Shown here: piece after piece, positions 1-33,980 of the stretch
How positions within the stretch are numbered: the stretch's first letter is position 1
How the letters are laid out: each line of letters opens with the position of its first letter
NCBI GenBank assembly: GCA_044868695.1
Contig: JBIOWP010000087.1
Span: 1 to 35,762, forward strand
Origin: a bacterium
GTDB taxonomy: Bacteria; Sysuimicrobiota; Sysuimicrobiia; Sysuimicrobiales; Kaftiobacteriaceae
Length of the DNA stretch: 35,762 nucleotides
Direction of reading: 5' to 3'
The notes under the pieces: generated by a model
Databases searched by the model: none
The model's input: only the letters and a program-made list of their open reading frames with translations
Told to the model about the DNA's origin: nothing
Position numbers and translations under genes: made by a program

Positions 1-587
<587 letters not shown>

Positions 588-717
588 CCGCTTTAGGGGT
601 AGCTGTGTAGGGCCTGCAGACGGCGAAGATTGATGTCGAAGGACCCAAGGTCAAGGTCGACGGCCGAGGCCCTAGGGGTTTGTGCCGAAGCCCCCTTGAC
701 CTTCGACATCATAGGAG

Positions 718-835
718 TCCCGGCGGCTATGCCGGAGGGGCCACACCCGTTCCCATTTCGAACACGGAAGTTAAGCCCTCCAGGGCCGATGGTACTGCAC
801 TGGTAACGGTGTGGGAGAGTAGGTCGCTGCCGGGG
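718..835 (+). rRNA. rrf: 5S rRNA
   Basis: 118 nt; contains CACCCGTTCCCATTTCGAACACGGAAGTTAAG, GCCGATGGTACT and GGGAGAGTAGGTCG; terminal helix CCCGGCGGC/GCTGCCGGG. Confidence 0.97.
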
Positions 836-13576: not shown

Positions 13577-13678
13577 CCACCCGCAAACCGCAAAATCTGG
13601 TGGTCGAGGTGCTGCGGTGGCCCCCCATGTGGGGGTCTTCGAATTTCTGCGAAAAACCTGGGGATTTGAGGTCTGAGA

Positions 13679-13705
13679 GGAGGAGTTGGGGGGTACGGGT
13701 GGAAT
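13679..13705 (+). promoter_or_regulatory. sigmaH-like promoter of the dcw operon
   Basis: GGAGGAGT-N12-GTGGAAT, identical in pattern to 28513-28539; fits the AGGA-N17-GAAT core of B. subtilis sigmaH promoters. Confidence 0.6.
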
Positions 13706-13735
13706 AGATGGGTCACAAAGTGGGAAACGGTGGGG
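13699..13735 (+). promoter_or_regulatory. MraZ-binding direct repeats (dcw box)
   Basis: GTGGA/ATGGG/GTGGG/GTGGG at 13699, 13708, 13720 and 13730 (about 10-bp period), directly before mraZ. Confidence 0.75.
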
Positions 13736-13738
13736 AGC

Positions 13739-14161
13739 TTGTTCAGAGGCGAGCACCATTATTCCCTGGACGAAAAGGGACGGATCGTGTTGCCACCGCC
13801 ATTCCGCGCCGCCCTGGGCGGCAGGGTCGTGGTCGCGCGCGGACTCGATGAGTGCGTCGCGGTGTACGCCCCAGCGGAGTGGGCGAAGAACGAGAAGAAG
13901 CTGCGGGGCCTCTCGGTCAGCCGGCGCGATTTCGTGCGGTTCGTGCTGGCCAGCGCGGAAGACATCGAAGTCGACCGGCAGGGCCGGATGATGATCCCGG
14001 CGCACCTCCGTGAGTACGCGAAGATCGAGCGGGAAGCCGTGGTCGTCGGCGTGGGCAGCCGGCTGGAGATCTGGGGCCTGGCGAACTGGCAGCGATATAT
14101 CGCGAGAGTGCAGACCGAGGCGCCGTCTATCGCGGCTGAGTTGAAGGACTTGAGCCTGTAA
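13739..14161 (+). CDS. mraZ: Division/cell wall cluster transcriptional repressor MraZ
   Basis: FRGE...LDEKGR and VDRQGR repeats, RGLDEC, GVGSRLEIW; TTG 13739 aligns with the usual MF start (alternative GTG 13730). Confidence 0.96.
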   Translation: MFRGEHHYSLDEKGRIVLPPPFRAALGGRVVVARGLDECVAVYAPAEWAKNEKKLRGLSVSRRDFVRFVLASAEDIEVDRQGRMMIPAHLREYAKIEREAVVVGVGSRLEIWGLANWQRYIARVQTEAPSIAAELKDLSL

Positions 14162-27708: not shown

Positions 27709-28530
27709 ATGCCGAGCATACACGTCGCTGCATATCCCCTCACCCCGTCCGCGGGCTCCGGCGTCGCCGCGGAGTCTGCGCCGCCCGTCCTGACGTCGAT
27801 GGTGCGTCTGCTCCGGTTTGGCGCCGCCATGGCGTTCCTCCTGGCCGCGGCCGCGTTCCCGCAGTCGTCGTTCTTTGCCGTTTCCGACATCACCGTGCTG
27901 GGAGCCCACCACACGAGCGCATCGGAGATCATCGCCCGCGCCGGCCTGCGGCCGGGGACACCCCTGTCCCGCCTCGACGCGCGCGATGCCGTCGGCCGCA
28001 TCACCACACATCCGTGGGTGGCGTCGGCACGCATCCGCGTCTCGCCCGCAGGCCAGGTCGACATCCTCATCAGCGAGCGGGTGCCGCACGCTGCGCTTCC
28101 CTACCGTGGCGGGTATCTCACGCTGGACCACAGGGGCGTGGCGATCGAGCTGACCGCCTCCCGTCCTCCGCTGCCGGTCATCACGATCGATGATCTGACC
28201 CTGCCGTGGGTGCGTCTCGGTGATCGTGTGCCCGCCCCCGGCGTGCTGGGCGCGCTGCGCGCGCTCGGGGCGATGCCCCAGCCGGAGATTGCGCGGGGCA
28301 TCCAGCTGCGCGTGAACGCAGGGGGCGATGTGGTGGTAACGACGGCGGACGGGATTACGGTGTTGATGGGCCAGGCACGAGGGCTCGGGCCGCGCGCGCT
28401 CTCCCTCACGCAGGTGCTTGCCGCGATCCGCAGCCGTCCTCTGGCCGTGCGGTCGGTGGATCTCCGATTTGCAGGCAGCGTCATCCTGCGGCCGGAGCCC
28501 GCGGGGTCCAAGGGAGGAGTCCGACCCTAA
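27709..28530 (+). CDS. ftsQ: Cell division protein FtsQ/DivIB (POTRA domain)
   Basis: TM followed by FFAVSDITVLG POTRA, PWVASA..., ISERVP and C-terminal VDLRF; position before ftsA; start uncertain. Confidence 0.85.
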   Translation: MPSIHVAAYPLTPSAGSGVAAESAPPVLTSMVRLLRFGAAMAFLLAAAAFPQSSFFAVSDITVLGAHHTSASEIIARAGLRPGTPLSRLDARDAVGRITTHPWVASARIRVSPAGQVDILISERVPHAALPYRGGYLTLDHRGVAIELTASRPPLPVITIDDLTLPWVRLGDRVPAPGVLGALRALGAMPQPEIARGIQLRVNAGGDVVVTTADGITVLMGQARGLGPRALSLTQVLAAIRSRPLAVRSVDLRFAGSVILRPEPAGSKGGVRP

Positions 28531-28539
28531 ATGTGGAAT
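28513..28539 (+). promoter_or_regulatory. sigmaH-like promoter for ftsA-ftsZ
   Basis: GGAGGAGT-N12-GTGGAAT, the same pattern as upstream of mraZ. Confidence 0.6.
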
Positions 28540-28543
28540 CGTG

Positions 28544-28591
28544 CTACAAGATATGGGGGAAAAGTTACGCAAGCTCTACTAGATATGGGAG
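28544..28591 (+). promoter_or_regulatory. Tandem NrdR-box-like operators upstream of ftsA
   Basis: CTACAAGATATGGGGG (28544) and CTACTAGATATGGGAG (28576), 32 bp apart, share the C.AGATAT.G core with the boxes upstream of nrdR. Confidence 0.7.
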
Positions 28592-28642: not shown

Positions 28643-29878
28643 ATGTCGCGTAGGCAGCAGGTCATCGGACTGGACATCGGGACCACCAAGGTGTGCGCGG
28701 TGGTCGGCGAGGTCGACGAAGAGGGCGAGGTCCATATCGCCGGCGTCGGCAGTACGCCGTCCTCGGGCATCCGCAAGGGCGTGGTCATCGACATCGAGGC
28801 GACCACCCGCGCGGTCGAGGAGGCCGTGGAGCGGGCAGAGCGCATGGCGGGGATCACGATTTCCGCCCTATACGTAGGAGTCTCTGGGGAGCACATCACC
28901 TCGACGAACTCCCGTGGGGTGATCGCCGTCAGCCGCGGCGACCACGAGATCTCCACCGCGGACGTGGATCGCGTCATTGAGGCGGCGCGGATGGCGGCCC
29001 TGCCGGCGTCCGATCGCGAGATCGTGCACATGCTGCCGCGCGGATTCGTGGTCGACGGCCATGACGGGGTCCGCAACCCCGTCGGGATGTACGGCTCGCG
29101 CCTCGAGGTGGAGGCCCATATCGTCACCGGCACGTCGACCGTGCTGGCCAACCTCCTCAAGTGCGTCCAGCGCGCCGGCCTCGAGGTGGATGAAATCGTC
29201 CTGGAGCCCCTGGCGTCGGCCGAAGGCGTGCTCGCGCAGGCGGAGCGTGAGCTGGGTGTCGTGCTGGCGGACATCGGCGGCGGCACGACCAGTGTCGGCG
29301 TGTTTGCGGGCGGCGGATTGTCCCACACCGCCATCCTGCCGGTGGGCGGTCACCACGTCACCAGCGACGTGGCGGTCGGGCTGCGCACGCCGGTCGCGGA
29401 GGCGGAGAAACTGAAGATCCGCCACGGAGCCGCATCCGTGTCCGACGTCCACGAGGGCGAGCTGATTGAGGTGTTCAATGTGGGCGACCGCGAGCCCCGG
29501 GTGCTCCCGCGCAAGGTACTCTGCGAGATCATCGAGCCGCGGCTCCAGGAGATCTGCAGCCTCCTGCGGCTGCAGATCAAGCGCAGCGGGTACGGCCACC
29601 TGGTGCCGGCCGGGATCGTCTTGACCGGCGGGAGCGCGCTGCTGCGCGGCATCGCCAAGTACGTGAGCGAGAAGCTCGAGCTGCCCGCGCGCGTGGGCGT
29701 CCCCGAGCAGGTCGGTGGGCTGATTGACGCCGTGGCGAGTCCCATCTACGCCACCGGCGTGGGGTTGGTGCTGTACGGGGTCCGCCACGGCGGGCCAAAA
29801 CCCGAGCGATCCGGCAACGGCGCCGGGCTGGTCGGCAAGATGCGCGGGTGGATTCGAGAGATGGTGCACGGCGCGTAA
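28643..29878 (+). CDS. ftsA: Cell division protein FtsA
   Basis: GLDIGTTKV, GIRKGVV, DIGGGTT, AEKLK, IIEPR, GIVLTGG and a C-terminal amphipathic helix. Confidence 0.97.
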   Translation: MSRRQQVIGLDIGTTKVCAVVGEVDEEGEVHIAGVGSTPSSGIRKGVVIDIEATTRAVEEAVERAERMAGITISALYVGVSGEHITSTNSRGVIAVSRGDHEISTADVDRVIEAARMAALPASDREIVHMLPRGFVVDGHDGVRNPVGMYGSRLEVEAHIVTGTSTVLANLLKCVQRAGLEVDEIVLEPLASAEGVLAQAERELGVVLADIGGGTTSVGVFAGGGLSHTAILPVGGHHVTSDVAVGLRTPVAEAEKLKIRHGAASVSDVHEGELIEVFNVGDREPRVLPRKVLCEIIEPRLQEICSLLRLQIKRSGYGHLVPAGIVLTGGSALLRGIAKYVSEKLELPARVGVPEQVGGLIDAVASPIYATGVGLVLYGVRHGGPKPERSGNGAGLVGKMRGWIREMVHGA

Positions 29879-29893
29879 AAGGAGGCTACCGTG

Positions 29894-30952
29894 ATGGGGC
29901 ACATTGATCGCGATCTACGCCGGTACGCGGCGATCAAGGTGGTCGGCGTGGGCGGCGGCGGCAGCAACGCCGTGAACCGAATGATCAACGCGGGGCTGCG
30001 CGGCGTCGAGTTCATCGCCATCAACACGGATGCGCAGGCCCTGGCGATGAGCAACGCCGACAAGAAAATTCACGTCGGCAGCAAGATCACCAAAGGGCTC
30101 GGGGCCGGCGGGGATCCCGAAATCGGGCGGCAGGCAGCGGAAGAGAGCAAGGACGACCTCTACGAGGTCCTCGAGGGCGCGGACATGGTGTTCATCACCG
30201 CGGGCATGGGCGGGGGCACCGGCACCGGCGGCTCGCCGATTGTCGCGGAGGTTGCCCGGGAGCTCAGCGCGCTGACCATCGGGGTGGTGACGAAGCCGTT
30301 CTCGTTCGAGGGCCGGCGCCGCGCACAATCCGCCGAGGAAGGGACGCGCAGCCTCAAAGGAAAGGTGAACACGCTCATCACCATCCCCAACGACCGGCTG
30401 CTGCAGATCATCGACCGCGCGGCCACGGTGGTGGAGGCTTTCCGGGTCGCCGACGACGTGCTGCGCCAGGGCGTGCAGGGGATCGCCGACCTAATCACCG
30501 TACCCGGCCTCATCAACCTGGATTTCGCCGACGTGCGGACGATCATGCACGAAGCCGGCTCGGCGCTCATCGGGATCGGCGTGGCCACCGGCGAGGACCG
30601 GGCCATCCGGGCCGCGCAGGCGGCGATCAGCAGCCCGCTGCTGGAGACCTCGATGGCGGGCGCCCGGGGCGTGTTGATCAACGTGACCGGCGGGCTGGAC
30701 CTGGGGCTGCTGGAAGTGTCGGAAGCCGCGCAGATCGTCAAGGACGCGGCCGATCCGGACGCCAACATCATCTTCGGAGCCGTCATCGACGACAAGGTCG
30801 ATGGCGAGATGCGCATCACGGTCATCGCCACCGGGTTCGACGCGGGCCGCAAGCCCTCCGACAAACTGGGCGAGAGCCCGGACGCGATCGAAGACGGCGT
30901 GAAGGCGCTGATCAACGACCTCGACATTCCGGCGTTTCTGCGCCGCAGGTAG
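29894..30952 (+). CDS. ftsZ: Cell division protein FtsZ
   Basis: [33 protein letters not shown] and C-terminal [19 protein letters not shown] (alternative start GTG 29891). Confidence 0.98.
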
Positions 30953-30991: not shown

Positions 30992-30993
30992 AT

Positions 30994-31033
30994 GGAGGGG
31001 GGACTGCGGTGCAGGTTCCCCCTTCTCGTTTTT
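30994..31033 (+). terminator. Probable Rho-independent terminator after ftsZ
   Basis: Imperfect stem GGAGGGGGGACTGC / GCAGGTTCCCCCTTC followed by TCGTTTTT. Confidence 0.6.
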
Positions 31034-31060
31034 GTGTTGAAGGCGTACCGTAGGGGTATC

Positions 31061-32116
31061 GTGTTCGATCTCACCTCGGAACTTCAGGGGCTGCTGCACG
31101 TCGTCGAGGAGTATTTTCCCGTCACTGGGGTGGTGGACGAGGGGGGGAGACCCGCGTTCGCCGTCCACCTCCCTTCCGACAGCAAGCGCCGATTCCTCGC
31201 CCTCCGGCAGCGGCTGATTCCCACGGGGCTGCTGCCCGTTCTGCGGCACCGCCCCGCAGGCCAGGTCCTGGTGCTCCTCCCACAGCCCCCGCCGGTGCGG
31301 TGGCGATGGCAGGTCAACGCCGGGTTGTTTGTGTTGACGCTCCTGACGACGTTCGCGGCGGGCTATCTGAACACGCAGGGGCTGGTGGAGTCTGGGTACC
31401 TGCGTTCTGCAGTGGGCGGCGGGGCGGCGTTCGCGTTCTCCCTGATGGCCATCCTGGTCACGCACGAGATGGGTCACAAGGTGATGTCGATCGTCCGCGG
31501 CGTCGACAGCAGCCTCCCGTACTTCATTCCTATGGCGCCGCCGCTGGGAACGATGGGGGCAGTCATCATGACCCGGACGCCGGCGCCCAATCGCGATGCG
31601 TTGATGGATGTCGGCGCCTCCGGCCCGATCGCCGGCTTCCTGGTGGCGATTCCGGTCCTGGTGGTCGGCATCACCAATTCGTTCGTCATCCGGCCCACCG
31701 ACTTTCAGGGTATCAACCTGCCGGATCCGCTGCTGCTGCAGTGGCTGATGGCCTGGCTCCTACATCCGCCGGAAGGCGCCGTGGTGCTGGGGCATCCGGT
31801 ATTGTTCGCCGGCTGGATCGGACTGCTGGTGACCAGCTTGAATCTGCTCCCGGCCAGCATGCTGGACGGCGGCCACGCGGTGCGCGCGCTGTTCGGGGGG
31901 CGTCTCCACACCCTGCTGTCGTGGGTTGGCGTCGCGGTTGCCGCGGTGCTGGGGTACTGGCTGATGGCGGCGTTGATCCTGCTGATGCTGCGGCGCGGCC
32001 ATCCGGGCCCGCTCGATGACGTCTCCCGGCCCAGCCCGTCCCGCATCGTGGTCGGCGTGATCCTGCTCGTCATCTTCATCGTCAGCGCCGTGCCGATGGG
32101 GATCCCGCTGCGATGA
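31061..32116 (+). CDS. Site-2 protease family (M50) intramembrane metalloprotease
   Basis: THEMGH (HExxH), GPIAGF and NLLPASMLDGGH; start placed downstream of the terminator. Confidence 0.92.
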   Translation: MFDLTSELQGLLHVVEEYFPVTGVVDEGGRPAFAVHLPSDSKRRFLALRQRLIPTGLLPVLRHRPAGQVLVLLPQPPPVRWRWQVNAGLFVLTLLTTFAAGYLNTQGLVESGYLRSAVGGGAAFAFSLMAILVTHEMGHKVMSIVRGVDSSLPYFIPMAPPLGTMGAVIMTRTPAPNRDALMDVGASGPIAGFLVAIPVLVVGITNSFVIRPTDFQGINLPDPLLLQWLMAWLLHPPEGAVVLGHPVLFAGWIGLLVTSLNLLPASMLDGGHAVRALFGGRLHTLLSWVGVAVAAVLGYWLMAALILLMLRRGHPGPLDDVSRPSPSRIVVGVILLVIFIVSAVPMGIPLR

Positions 32117-33312
32117 AACCGGTCGCGTTCGGGCTCGTCGGCGCGGTGTTCGCCAAAGAGATGATCGAGACGCTGCGCGATCGCCGGACCCTCGTGGTGG
32201 CGTTTGTGCTGCCGCTGGTGCTGATGCCGGTGGTGACGCTCGGGGTCCCCTACCTGGCGGAGCGGCAGCAGCACCGGCGCGAAGAAGCTCCGTCCCGGGT
32301 TGTCGTGGTAGGTGCTCCGCGCGGAGGCGAAGTGCTCGCCTCCGGCATCGCCCGCGGGTTCATCCGGCCCGTGGAATCCGGTGATCCACGCGGCGCCCTC
32401 AGCGGTGGAGCTGTCGACGCCATCCTGGAGGTGCCTGAGGACTTTGGCTCCCGGCTGCGCGAAGGAGACGGCGAGGTGACCATCGTGTTTGATGAGAGTC
32501 AGCCTGCCTCGGCGGTCGCGCGGGGGAGGATCGAGGAGGTCATAGCCAGCTACGGCCTCGCGCTCTCCGAACAACGTTTGCGCGAGGCCGGTCTCTCCCG
32601 CCAGGATCTGGCTCCGATCCGCGTGACTGCGCACAGCATCGCCGACCGCCGGCGGCTGGGCGGCGCGCTGATGGCCGGGCTCCTCCCGTTCTTTCTCGCT
32701 ATCTGGGCAGTCGTCGGAGGCCAGCACGCGGCCCTGGACGCCGGCGCCGGCGAGAAGGAACGCCGCACGCTGGAAACGCTGCTGGTGGCGCCGCCCCCCA
32801 GGTGGGTCCTGGCCACTGGGAAGTTCCTGGCGGTGGCCGCCTCATCGGCCGCCGCTGTCACAGTGGTGATCGCCGCCGCTCTGGTCAGCCTGTTCGCGGG
32901 GGCGTGGTGGGGGCTCGCGGGGCTGGCTCGCGCCTCGCTCGTTGTCGGGGCGGGCCCGGCGCTCGCTCTGGTGGCGGTGGCGATTTCCCTGGTTGCCCTC
33001 CTCAGCGCCCTCCAGCTGGCTTTGAGCTTGCTCGCCCGCAGCATGCGGGAAGCCCAGCAGTTCTTCACACCGGTCTATCTGGTCGTCTCTCTGCCTGCCA
33101 TGGCCGCCCCCTTCCTGGAGGGGTGGGAGCGCTCGGCGTGGACGTTCCTCATCCCCGGCCTGGGCCCGATCTTCGCCTTTCGAGGGCTGCTGCTTAGAAA
33201 TCTCATGCCGGCCTATCTGACCCTGACACTCGCCTCCACGGGCCTGTATGCCGGTTGCTGTCTGGCGTTGGCCGTCCGCGCCCTCCGTGGCGGGCCCGCA
33301 CGCCGGGCCTGA
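32113..33312 (+). CDS. ABC-2 type permease, NatB-like
   Basis: KEMIETLRDRR, AGEKERRTLETLL.AP and ARSMREAQ; ATGA overlap. Confidence 0.88.
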   Translation: MKPVAFGLVGAVFAKEMIETLRDRRTLVVAFVLPLVLMPVVTLGVPYLAERQQHRREEAPSRVVVVGAPRGGEVLASGIARGFIRPVESGDPRGALSGGAVDAILEVPEDFGSRLREGDGEVTIVFDESQPASAVARGRIEEVIASYGLALSEQRLREAGLSRQDLAPIRVTAHSIADRRRLGGALMAGLLPFFLAIWAVVGGQHAALDAGAGEKERRTLETLLVAPPPRWVLATGKFLAVAASSAAAVTVVIAAALVSLFAGAWWGLAGLARASLVVGAGPALALVAVAISLVALLSALQLALSLLARSMREAQQFFTPVYLVVSLPAMAAPFLEGWERSAWTFLIPGLGPIFAFRGLLLRNLMPAYLTLTLASTGLYAGCCLALAVRALRGGPARRA

Positions 33313-33391: not shown

Positions 33392-33420
33392 TTGACACAC
33401 AAGATATAGAGAAATAGAAT
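33392..33420 (+). promoter_or_regulatory. sigma70 promoter of nrdR-nrdJ
   Basis: TTGACA (33392-33397), 17-bp spacer, TAGAAT (33415-33420). Confidence 0.85.
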
Positions 33421-33442
33421 CGTGGTGCCCCAGATATAGTGG
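33397..33442 (+). promoter_or_regulatory. Tandem NrdR boxes
   Basis: ACACAAGATATAGAGA (33397) and GCCCCAGATATAGTGG (33427) match the acaCwAtATaTwGtgt-type consensus; they overlap the promoter and are 30 bp apart. Confidence 0.85.
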
Positions 33443-33452
33443 GGCCCTCGAG

Positions 33453-33980
33453 ATGCGTTGCCCCTACTGCGCCCATGAAGAAAGCAAGGTCCTCGACTCC
33501 CGTCCCGTGGAAGACGGAGCCTCTATCCGCCGCCGCCGCGAATGCCTGAGGTGCGACCGGCGGTTCACCACTTATGAGCGGATGGACCATGTGCCGGTCA
33601 TGGTGGTCAAGCGGGATGGCCGACGGGAGCCGTTCGACCGCAACAAAATCCTCCGGGGACTCGTCCAGGCCTGCGGCAAGCGTCCGGTCTCGATGGATGA
33701 GCTTGAGCGCGTCGTTGTCGAAGTCGAGCGCGAGGTCACCGGTCGCGGAGACCGCGAGGTCAGCACGATGCAGATCGGCGCCCTGGTGATGGACCGCCTG
33801 CGGCGGCTGGACGACGTGGCCTATGTTCGCTTTGCCTCCGAACACCGGCGATTTCGAGACCTTGAGATGCTGGTGGAGGAGGCCGAGACCCTCAAAGAAC
33901 GCAAGCGGCGGGAAGAGGCCCTGCGCGCGCAGGTGCCTCTTCTGACCGTCGAGACCGGCCCGGCGAAGGCAACCAAGTAA
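33453..33980 (+). CDS. nrdR: Transcriptional repressor NrdR
   Basis: MRCPYC..SKVLDSR, RRRRECLRC..RFTTYE Zn ribbon, ATP cone VVKRDGRREPFDRNKI, and DDVAYVRFAS. Confidence 0.98.
   Translation: MRCPYCAHEESKVLDSRPVEDGASIRRRRECLRCDRRFTTYERMDHVPVMVVKRDGRREPFDRNKILRGLVQACGKRPVSMDELERVVVEVEREVTGRGDREVSTMQIGALVMDRLRRLDDVAYVRFASEHRRFRDLEMLVEEAETLKERKRREEALRAQVPLLTVETGPAKATK

Follow-up and report, generated by a model that had tools for sequence, protein, structure and literature searches.

The window analyzed here, a stretch of 35,762 nucleotides from a member of the Sysuimicrobiota, carries what is, judged by its sequence and its relatives, a real and deeply conserved NrdR-type operator on the promoter of the cell division genes ftsA and ftsZ (ftsAZ). 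This predicted operator joins a known regulator to a new class of target; also new here are a second NrdR-like pair upstream of mraZ and a Glu-His substitution in the regulator, both of which occur in the same clade. That NrdR directly represses ftsAZ through the two boxes is, in our assessment, probable. Members of the phylum are uncultured and come from soil and hot springs. The names CSP1-3, ANGP1, and Candidatus Calidihabitans refer to the same phylum (PMC11604079). Coordinates of the relevant features are collected in Table 1.

Table 1. Features of the window bearing on the predicted NrdR control of division genes (positions numbered from the first letter of the window)
Feature	Position	Strand	Detail
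Weaker NrdR-like pair, mraZ	13588-13603 + 13620-13635	.	17.0 bits; about 45 bp 5' of SigH-type -35
SigH-type promoter of mraZ (predicted)	13681..13705	+	Second-best SigH matrix match in genome
mraZ, head of division and cell-wall cluster	13730..14161	+	TIGR00242 above cut-off
ftsQ-like gene	27709..28530	+	Weak FtsQ match, E 5e-11, below cut-off; 3' end includes ftsA -35
SigH-type promoter of ftsAZ (predicted)	28515..28539	+	-35 AGGAG 28515-28519; -10 GTGGAAT 28533-28539
NrdR box 1, ftsAZ operator	28544..28559	.	18.2 bits; genome rank 3 among single sites
NrdR box 2, ftsAZ operator	28576..28591	.	16.4 bits
ftsA	28643..29878	+	TIGR01174 above cut-off
ftsZ	29891..30952	+	TIGR00065 above cut-off
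Terminator-like hairpin closing ftsAZ unit (predicted)	30994..31033	+	12-bp stem, T-run
Sigma-70-type promoter of nrdR-nrdJ	33392..33442	+	TTGACA 33392; TAGAAT ending 33420
Reference NrdR pair, nrdR-nrdJ promoter	33397-33412 + 33427-33442	+	Pair before nrdR across phylum
nrdR	33453..33980	+	TIGR00244 above cut-off
nrdJ, class II B12-dependent RNR, cut by contig end	34052..35762	+	TIGR02504 above cut-off

A preliminary description of this DNA had placed tandem NrdR boxes before both ftsA and nrdR, and all four 16-mers are found where it put them. The boxes of the ftsA pair, which lies between the ftsQ-like gene and ftsA, are 32 bp apart from start to start with a 16-bp linker; those of the nrdR pair are 30 bp apart with a 14-bp linker. 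Single cores of the form C.A[GCT]AT[AGC]T.G occur 169 times in the 2.59-Mb genome, and pairs of cores no more than 100 bp apart occur only at ftsA and nrdR. A NrdR matrix was trained on 37 boxes from other families (sites at nrdR, RNR, thymidylate synthase, and dnaE, plus two unassigned sites), with no ftsA site and no site from the genome's own family among them. This matrix ranks the ftsA pair first in the genome (34.6 bits), followed by the nrdR-nrdJ pair (33.2 bits) and a third pair at 25.4 bits; the 99th percentile of the background, taken as the best pair per random 323-nt window (n = 1,500), is 7.7 bits. The genome scan proposed in the preliminary description thus finds the ftsA pair to be the best in the genome and far above background. 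Because only two core pairs fall within 100 bp genome-wide, the ftsA pair is not a chance occurrence.

The same description had noted GAATCGTG before a box in both promoters. It does precede box 1 at ftsA and box 2 at nrdR, but is not an element common to the two: it forms the tail of two different -10 sequences, GTGGAAT (SigH type) at ftsA as against TAGAAT (sigma-70 type, with TTGACA) at nrdR, and its last four letters vary in relatives. A candidate third box at 28524, within the promoter spacer (a 20-bp pair of 26.0 bits), was dropped, as relatives do not conserve it. The third-best pair in the genome (C130:6272-6318) lies over a TTGACA-N17-TAGACT promoter built like that of nrdR; it is situated immediately beyond the tmRNA gene and is directed into a small tRNA-bounded island, where the neighboring reading frame is one that we take to be GIY-YIG-like.

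Sampling of the phylum comprised 94 genomes, 86 of which had an ftsA match; 85 were examined, with one partial gene left out, and three of these 85 ftsA genes were truncated upstream, leaving 82 upstream regions for comparison. Below, f1 denotes the genome's own family, f5 its sister family, and f2, f3, f4, f6, and f7 the five others. The box pair precedes ftsA in 21/21 genomes of f1 (27-36 bits), in 23/30 of f5 (11-28 bits), and in 0/31 of the five other families, these genomes being kin and not independent samples. Conservation of the boxes and their spacing before ftsA, which had been named as a check on the original proposal, therefore extends to 44 genomes in two families. As the pair is missing from 7 of the 30 f5 genomes and from all five other families, the link to ftsA is evidently dispensable.

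Where the pair is present, its form is closely constrained. The bases C4, A6, T11, and G13 are kept in both boxes in 21/21 f1 pairs and 22/23 f5 pairs, and C4, A6, A8, T9, T11, and G13 are each invariant (100%) in box 1 of the 21 f1 genomes. Start-to-start spacing is 31 or 32 in 43 of the 44 pairs and 33 in the other (within f1, 32 in 18 and 31 in 3). Identity between genera of f1 falls from 0.81 in box 1 and 0.66 in box 2 to 0.43 in the linker and 0.29 downstream. The four key bases are positions that NrdR needs in vitro (PMC13584703), and a linker of about 15-16 bp is needed, with 14-17 tolerated (PMC12051234); the ftsA operator thus shows the key bases, linker length, and RNR-like score of known tandem NrdR operators. 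Box 2 at ftsA in f5 has a central AG, which is under-scored by the matrix used here and is also present in the functional box 2 of E. coli nrdAB (PMC13584703). Matching central drift is seen at box 2 of nrdR in the same f5 genomes, as expected of one reader for both sites.

Single NrdR-like boxes without a partner follow the SigH-type -10 in five genomes of f6 and f3 (G026, G073, G076, G040, and G077); these lone boxes may be remnants of the operator or precursors of it. One f1 genome (G003) carries a second, divergent ftsA (50% identical, at C143), which lacks boxes. Beyond the phylum, the best pair at 30 ftsA loci from other phyla scored 9.4 bits, and among 24 pattern matches in 401 genomes from the phylum of a Clostridiaceae record, none lay before ftsA, the query covering ftsA sites with set codons. 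Narrow queries aimed at ftsA returned no instance of the same arrangement outside the phylum; in JGI metagenomes (gap window 35-65), 5 of 64 matches fell on ftsA, each with 76-91% identity to the ftsA of the window.

Strict pairs number 31 in 22 f1 genomes, all of them at ftsA (20) or nrdR (11), and a reversed control pattern matched in 2/41 genomes, none of them in f1. Retrieval in sibling families covered 13 strict pairs that do not lie at nrdR. The five scanned neighbor genes of these pairs are thyA (2), a thyX-like gene, dnaE, and nrdA; the neighbors of six further pairs resemble these genes by reading frame or shared flanks, and the remaining two are unassigned. The occurrence of the motif at thyA, thyX, dnaE, and nrdA serves as a positive control that it is the motif of NrdR. 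In four genomes of f4 (L079, L081, L082, and L084), a strict pair extends over the start of dnaE, which encodes DNA polymerase III alpha. The thyX-like gene of the present genome has a single strong box (C107:14753-14768, 18.5 bits) just 5' of a SigH-type -35, and this box overlaps a word that is presumably DnaA-box-like.

The expression AGGAR-N16/17-GAAN is found before 78 of the 82 ftsA genes, whether boxes are present or not (length 25 in 74, 26 in 4), and fits the SigH consensus (PMC4754846). A SigH gene is present in the genome (TIGR02859, 355 bits against a cut-off of 294.8), and Spo0A was not found in this 95%-complete genome; SigH here, with Spo0A not found, may serve cell-cycle genes. 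The sigmaH-like promoter proposed earlier for ftsA is, as a sequence match, the top one in the genome for a matrix trained on relatives, with fixed spacing between AGGA and GAAT. Box 1 starts 4 nt past the GAAT in 18/18 f1 sequences matching the promoter expression; in f5 it starts 3-4 nt past, or 9 nt in two genomes. Because box 1 begins 4 nt after the -10, it likely covers the predicted start site of ftsA. The terminator-like hairpin after ftsZ passes in 14/20 f1 genomes and in 1/22 box-bearing f5 genomes, so that read-through into nrdRJ is possible in the latter; transcription of ftsAZ may in addition start at promoters farther upstream, which NrdR would only partly block. Genome-wide, the SigH matrix built from ftsA promoters ranks ftsA and mraZ first, then ftsE, thyX, and HU-like and Ku-like genes, as named by translation (window 13679 and 28513; C93:4237, C107:14746, C84:62555, and C99:8019).

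At mraZ, the weaker NrdR-like pair is found in the same place in 20/20 f1 genomes with sequence, and exceeds 7.7 bits in 14 of these 20. Box 1 keeps C4, A6, T11, and G13 in 20/20 and box 2 lacks A6 in 20/20; in f5, box 2 mostly lacks G13. The four key bases are therefore not present in both boxes, and the pair is a weaker, one-and-a-half site. As one box is always imperfect, binding of NrdR at mraZ is less certain. The site nonetheless varies together with the ftsA pair: it scores 15-27 bits in 19/19 f5 genomes bearing ftsA boxes and is degenerate (-1.5 to 17.2 bits) in the six readable f5 genomes without them, and it exceeds 7.7 bits in 1/30 genomes of other families. Its distance to the -35 in f1 is 44-47, 55-57, or 77 bp, a series that suggests helical phasing. 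GTGGG repeats follow the mraZ -10, and we take these to be MraZ-type. Reading the upstream pair itself as MraZ repeats was discarded, given that the GTGGG repeats sit after the -10 and the pair is separately conserved upstream.

The candidate regulator is encoded close by. The nrdR pair lies 4.8 kb downstream of the ftsA pair, with the genes from ftsA to nrdJ all on one strand, and nrdJ follows nrdR in 64/66 loci. In a PF02867 search of this 95%-complete genome, nrdJ was the sole RNR large-subunit gene to appear, besides one short C-terminal fragment with which another contig begins. Alignment of the window's NrdR with solved NrdR structures shows both CxxC motifs and D15, R17, R26, R28, and R37 to be intact; the roles of these DNA-reading residues have been described (PMC12176259). 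The nucleotide pocket is unusual: Glu130-His131 (codons at window 33840-33845) stand in place of the Val-Tyr of E. coli, with the outer-site Phe kept. Canonical outer-site residues are F124, V127, and Y128 in S. coelicolor NrdR, of which the Val-Tyr residues touch the ribose and flip in response to its 2'-OH (PMC9110341). The Phe, Val, and Tyr set of a canonical dATP/ATP sensor is thus incomplete in the window's NrdR. Among diverse NrdR representatives, Val-Tyr occurs in 131/141 readable sequences (9/150 being unreadable) and Glu-His in one. Within the phylum, His131 is found in 19/19 f1 NrdRs, 18/25 f5 NrdRs, and 0/19 readable NrdRs of other families; Glu-Tyr occurs in f2, f4, and 7/25 f5 NrdRs, and Val-Tyr in f3, f6, and f7. 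The Glu-His pair lowers the reading of this protein as a canonical sensor, not the reading of the boxes as NrdR operators. Because it replaces the Val-Tyr that discriminates dATP from ATP, effector logic may differ in this NrdR, and the dATP logic may not hold for it.

Some further features of these loci are recorded here. One f1 genome (G018) has a second nrdR copy at C124 with its own box pair. Between ftsZ and nrdR (window 30992-33312) lie an ABC permease-like gene and a gene whose membrane protein product, with the motifs HEMGH and LDGG but no NCBIfam match, we take to be M50 peptidase-like. The first 835 nucleotides of the window (1-835) hold the 3' end of the 23S rRNA gene and the 5S rRNA gene.

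Trees of FtsA and FtsZ unite f1 and f5 (FastTree support 1.00, 92 rows; IQ-TREE quick SH-aLRT 96, 35 rows), and the boxless genera of f5 form one subclade. The IQ-TREE quick tree shows a three-way fork of f1, box-bearing f5, and boxless f5, so that the ftsA pair possibly originated in one gain, with or without loss, or in two gains. Both the mraZ site and His131 fall on the f1 and f5 branch that bears the ftsA pair, which counts as one event and not as a statistic. A broader scenario, which we hold only tentatively, is that NrdR was rewired to a cell-cycle regulator in the ancestor of f1 and f5: operators would have been gained at the SigH promoters of mraZ and ftsAZ, those of nrdRJ and thyX kept, and Val-Tyr changed to Glu-His on the same branch, such that nucleotide status would license Z-ring and septal-wall expression through a metabolite-read route independent of SOS.

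In the NrdRs studied to date, dATP replaces ATP in the outer site as DNA synthesis slows, whereupon the tetramer represses, and dATP/ADP likewise represses at low energy (PMC13584703, PMC9110341). Were this logic to apply here, a dATP-loaded NrdR tetramer would bind both boxes just past the SigH-type -10 and block ftsAZ. Idle or stalled replication would raise dATP and turn ftsAZ off, as would low energy (dATP/ADP); forks consuming dNTPs would turn ftsAZ on together with nrdRJ and probably thyX, and the supply of Z-ring proteins would be co-timed with S phase. Through the weaker mraZ site, the first gene of the division cluster would come under the same control, and division could be held after fork arrest without SOS. 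As NrdR represses at high dATP, a dNTP shortage would release ftsAZ and not block it; starving the sole RNR found, which is B12-dependent, would therefore have the same effect. The "gate" on division named in the preliminary description is best read as such co-timing, and not as a low-dNTP checkpoint.

Direct repression of ftsAZ by NrdR must be weighed against other accounts of the same boxes. The operator could instead serve to keep transcripts that start at the ftsA promoter from running on into nrdR-nrdJ, 4.8 kb downstream, with repression of ftsAZ as a side effect. The shared strand, the regular succession of nrdR and nrdJ, and the scarcity of passing terminators after ftsZ in box-bearing f5 genomes are compatible with this idea, which would be viable mainly in that family; f1, however, combines the post-ftsZ hairpin with the strongest boxes. 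The nrdR gene also has its own promoter and boxes, gene order is the same in families without ftsA boxes, a second site exists at mraZ, 20 kb from nrdR, and a terminator would be the cheaper fix. We consider this account quite unlikely. Reading of the motif by another regulator, or its origin as an RNA element or a by-product of promoter sequence, appears very improbable: the core is short and NrdR binding is here a sequence-based prediction, but the same paired motif stands at nrdR, RNR, thyA/thyX, and dnaE promoters, the linker is fixed in length and variable in sequence, other families keep the SigH promoter though they have no boxes there, and Rfam gave no RNA family match at the ftsA site.

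It is also conceivable, if unlikely, that NrdR does bind but that signal or outcome has changed, the Glu-His pocket reading another nucleotide ratio (e.g., energy charge, or dATP in both sites), or the bound protein acting by roadblock or looping, or by activation at mraZ. The distribution of His131 in f1 and f5 NrdRs, and its absence from the readable NrdRs of other families, would fit such a change, as would the Y128A variant of S. coelicolor NrdR, which binds two dATP (PMC9110341, PMC12176259). Outcomes other than repression find some support in the f1 mraZ sites, whose distances 5' of the -35 are roughly whole helical turns apart, and in the activation of topA by P. aeruginosa NrdR (PMC4409342). 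However, Tyr131 in seven box-bearing f5 genomes indicates that His is not required, the overlap of the ftsA site with the predicted start site is the usual repressor geometry, and the same NrdR must still control nrdJ. These data favor direct repression of ftsAZ by NrdR.

Known routes linking division to replication comprise nucleoid occlusion, SOS inhibitors, and initiator-type regulators. In Caulobacter, DnaA and CtrA couple ftsZ transcription to replication; this coupling and SOS division inhibitors likewise tie division to replication state, whereas in the present case NrdR would convey a metabolite ratio as the signal, instead of an initiator, a phosphorelay, or single-stranded DNA. Replication and nucleotide genes are reportedly the additional NrdR targets of Rodionov and Gelfand 2005 and RegPrecise. 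These two sources may bear on novelty; our literature search, which covered listings and the opening lines of abstracts, gave no paper with NrdR sites on division genes, consistent with the preliminary description's view of the link as undescribed; a mention of ftsZ with NrdR is, in the portion available, a STRING/BioGrid network edge (PMC4898720).

The closest counterparts of the ftsA operator are those of RNR operons (S. coelicolor nrdRJ and nrdAB; E. coli nrdAB, nrdHIEF, and nrdDG; PMC13584703, PMC9110341, PMC12051234), which share its two 16-bp partial palindromes, the C4/A6/A8/T9/T11/G13 pattern, and a 15-16 bp linker, and which overlap the polymerase site, as the ftsA pair is predicted to do; the cognate nrdR here lies beside nrdJ. 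The present case differs in its target, ftsAZ and more weakly mraZ, in its SigH-type promoter, and in its Glu-His regulator. P. aeruginosa topA (PMC4409342) is likewise a direct NrdR target outside nucleotide synthesis, but involves one box, activation, and DNA topology, as compared with two boxes over a predicted start and a division target here. The SigH-dependent ftsAZ promoter of B. subtilis (10.1101/2025.04.25.650602, PMC4754846) has the same AGGA...GAAT directly before ftsA-ftsZ, and SigH here is an orthologue; the available portions of those accounts mention no NrdR site, and in the present genome spo0A was not found, and promoters of this type also stand before mraZ, ftsE, thyX, and an HU-like gene.

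It has long been asked how bacteria match division to the replication of their chromosome. If ftsAZ does carry a full NrdR operator, the dNTP pool would feed directly into the expression of core division genes, and the role of NrdR would broaden from repression of RNR to regulation of the cell cycle. Binding to heterologous sites in vitro is known for NrdR proteins (PMC13584703), and the Glu-His pair, as a natural variant, also gives a view of how NrdR discriminates dATP from ATP. For the bacteria themselves, the arrangement of boxes, promoter, and regulator suggests that division proteins are likely made only while DNA synthesis consumes nucleotides.
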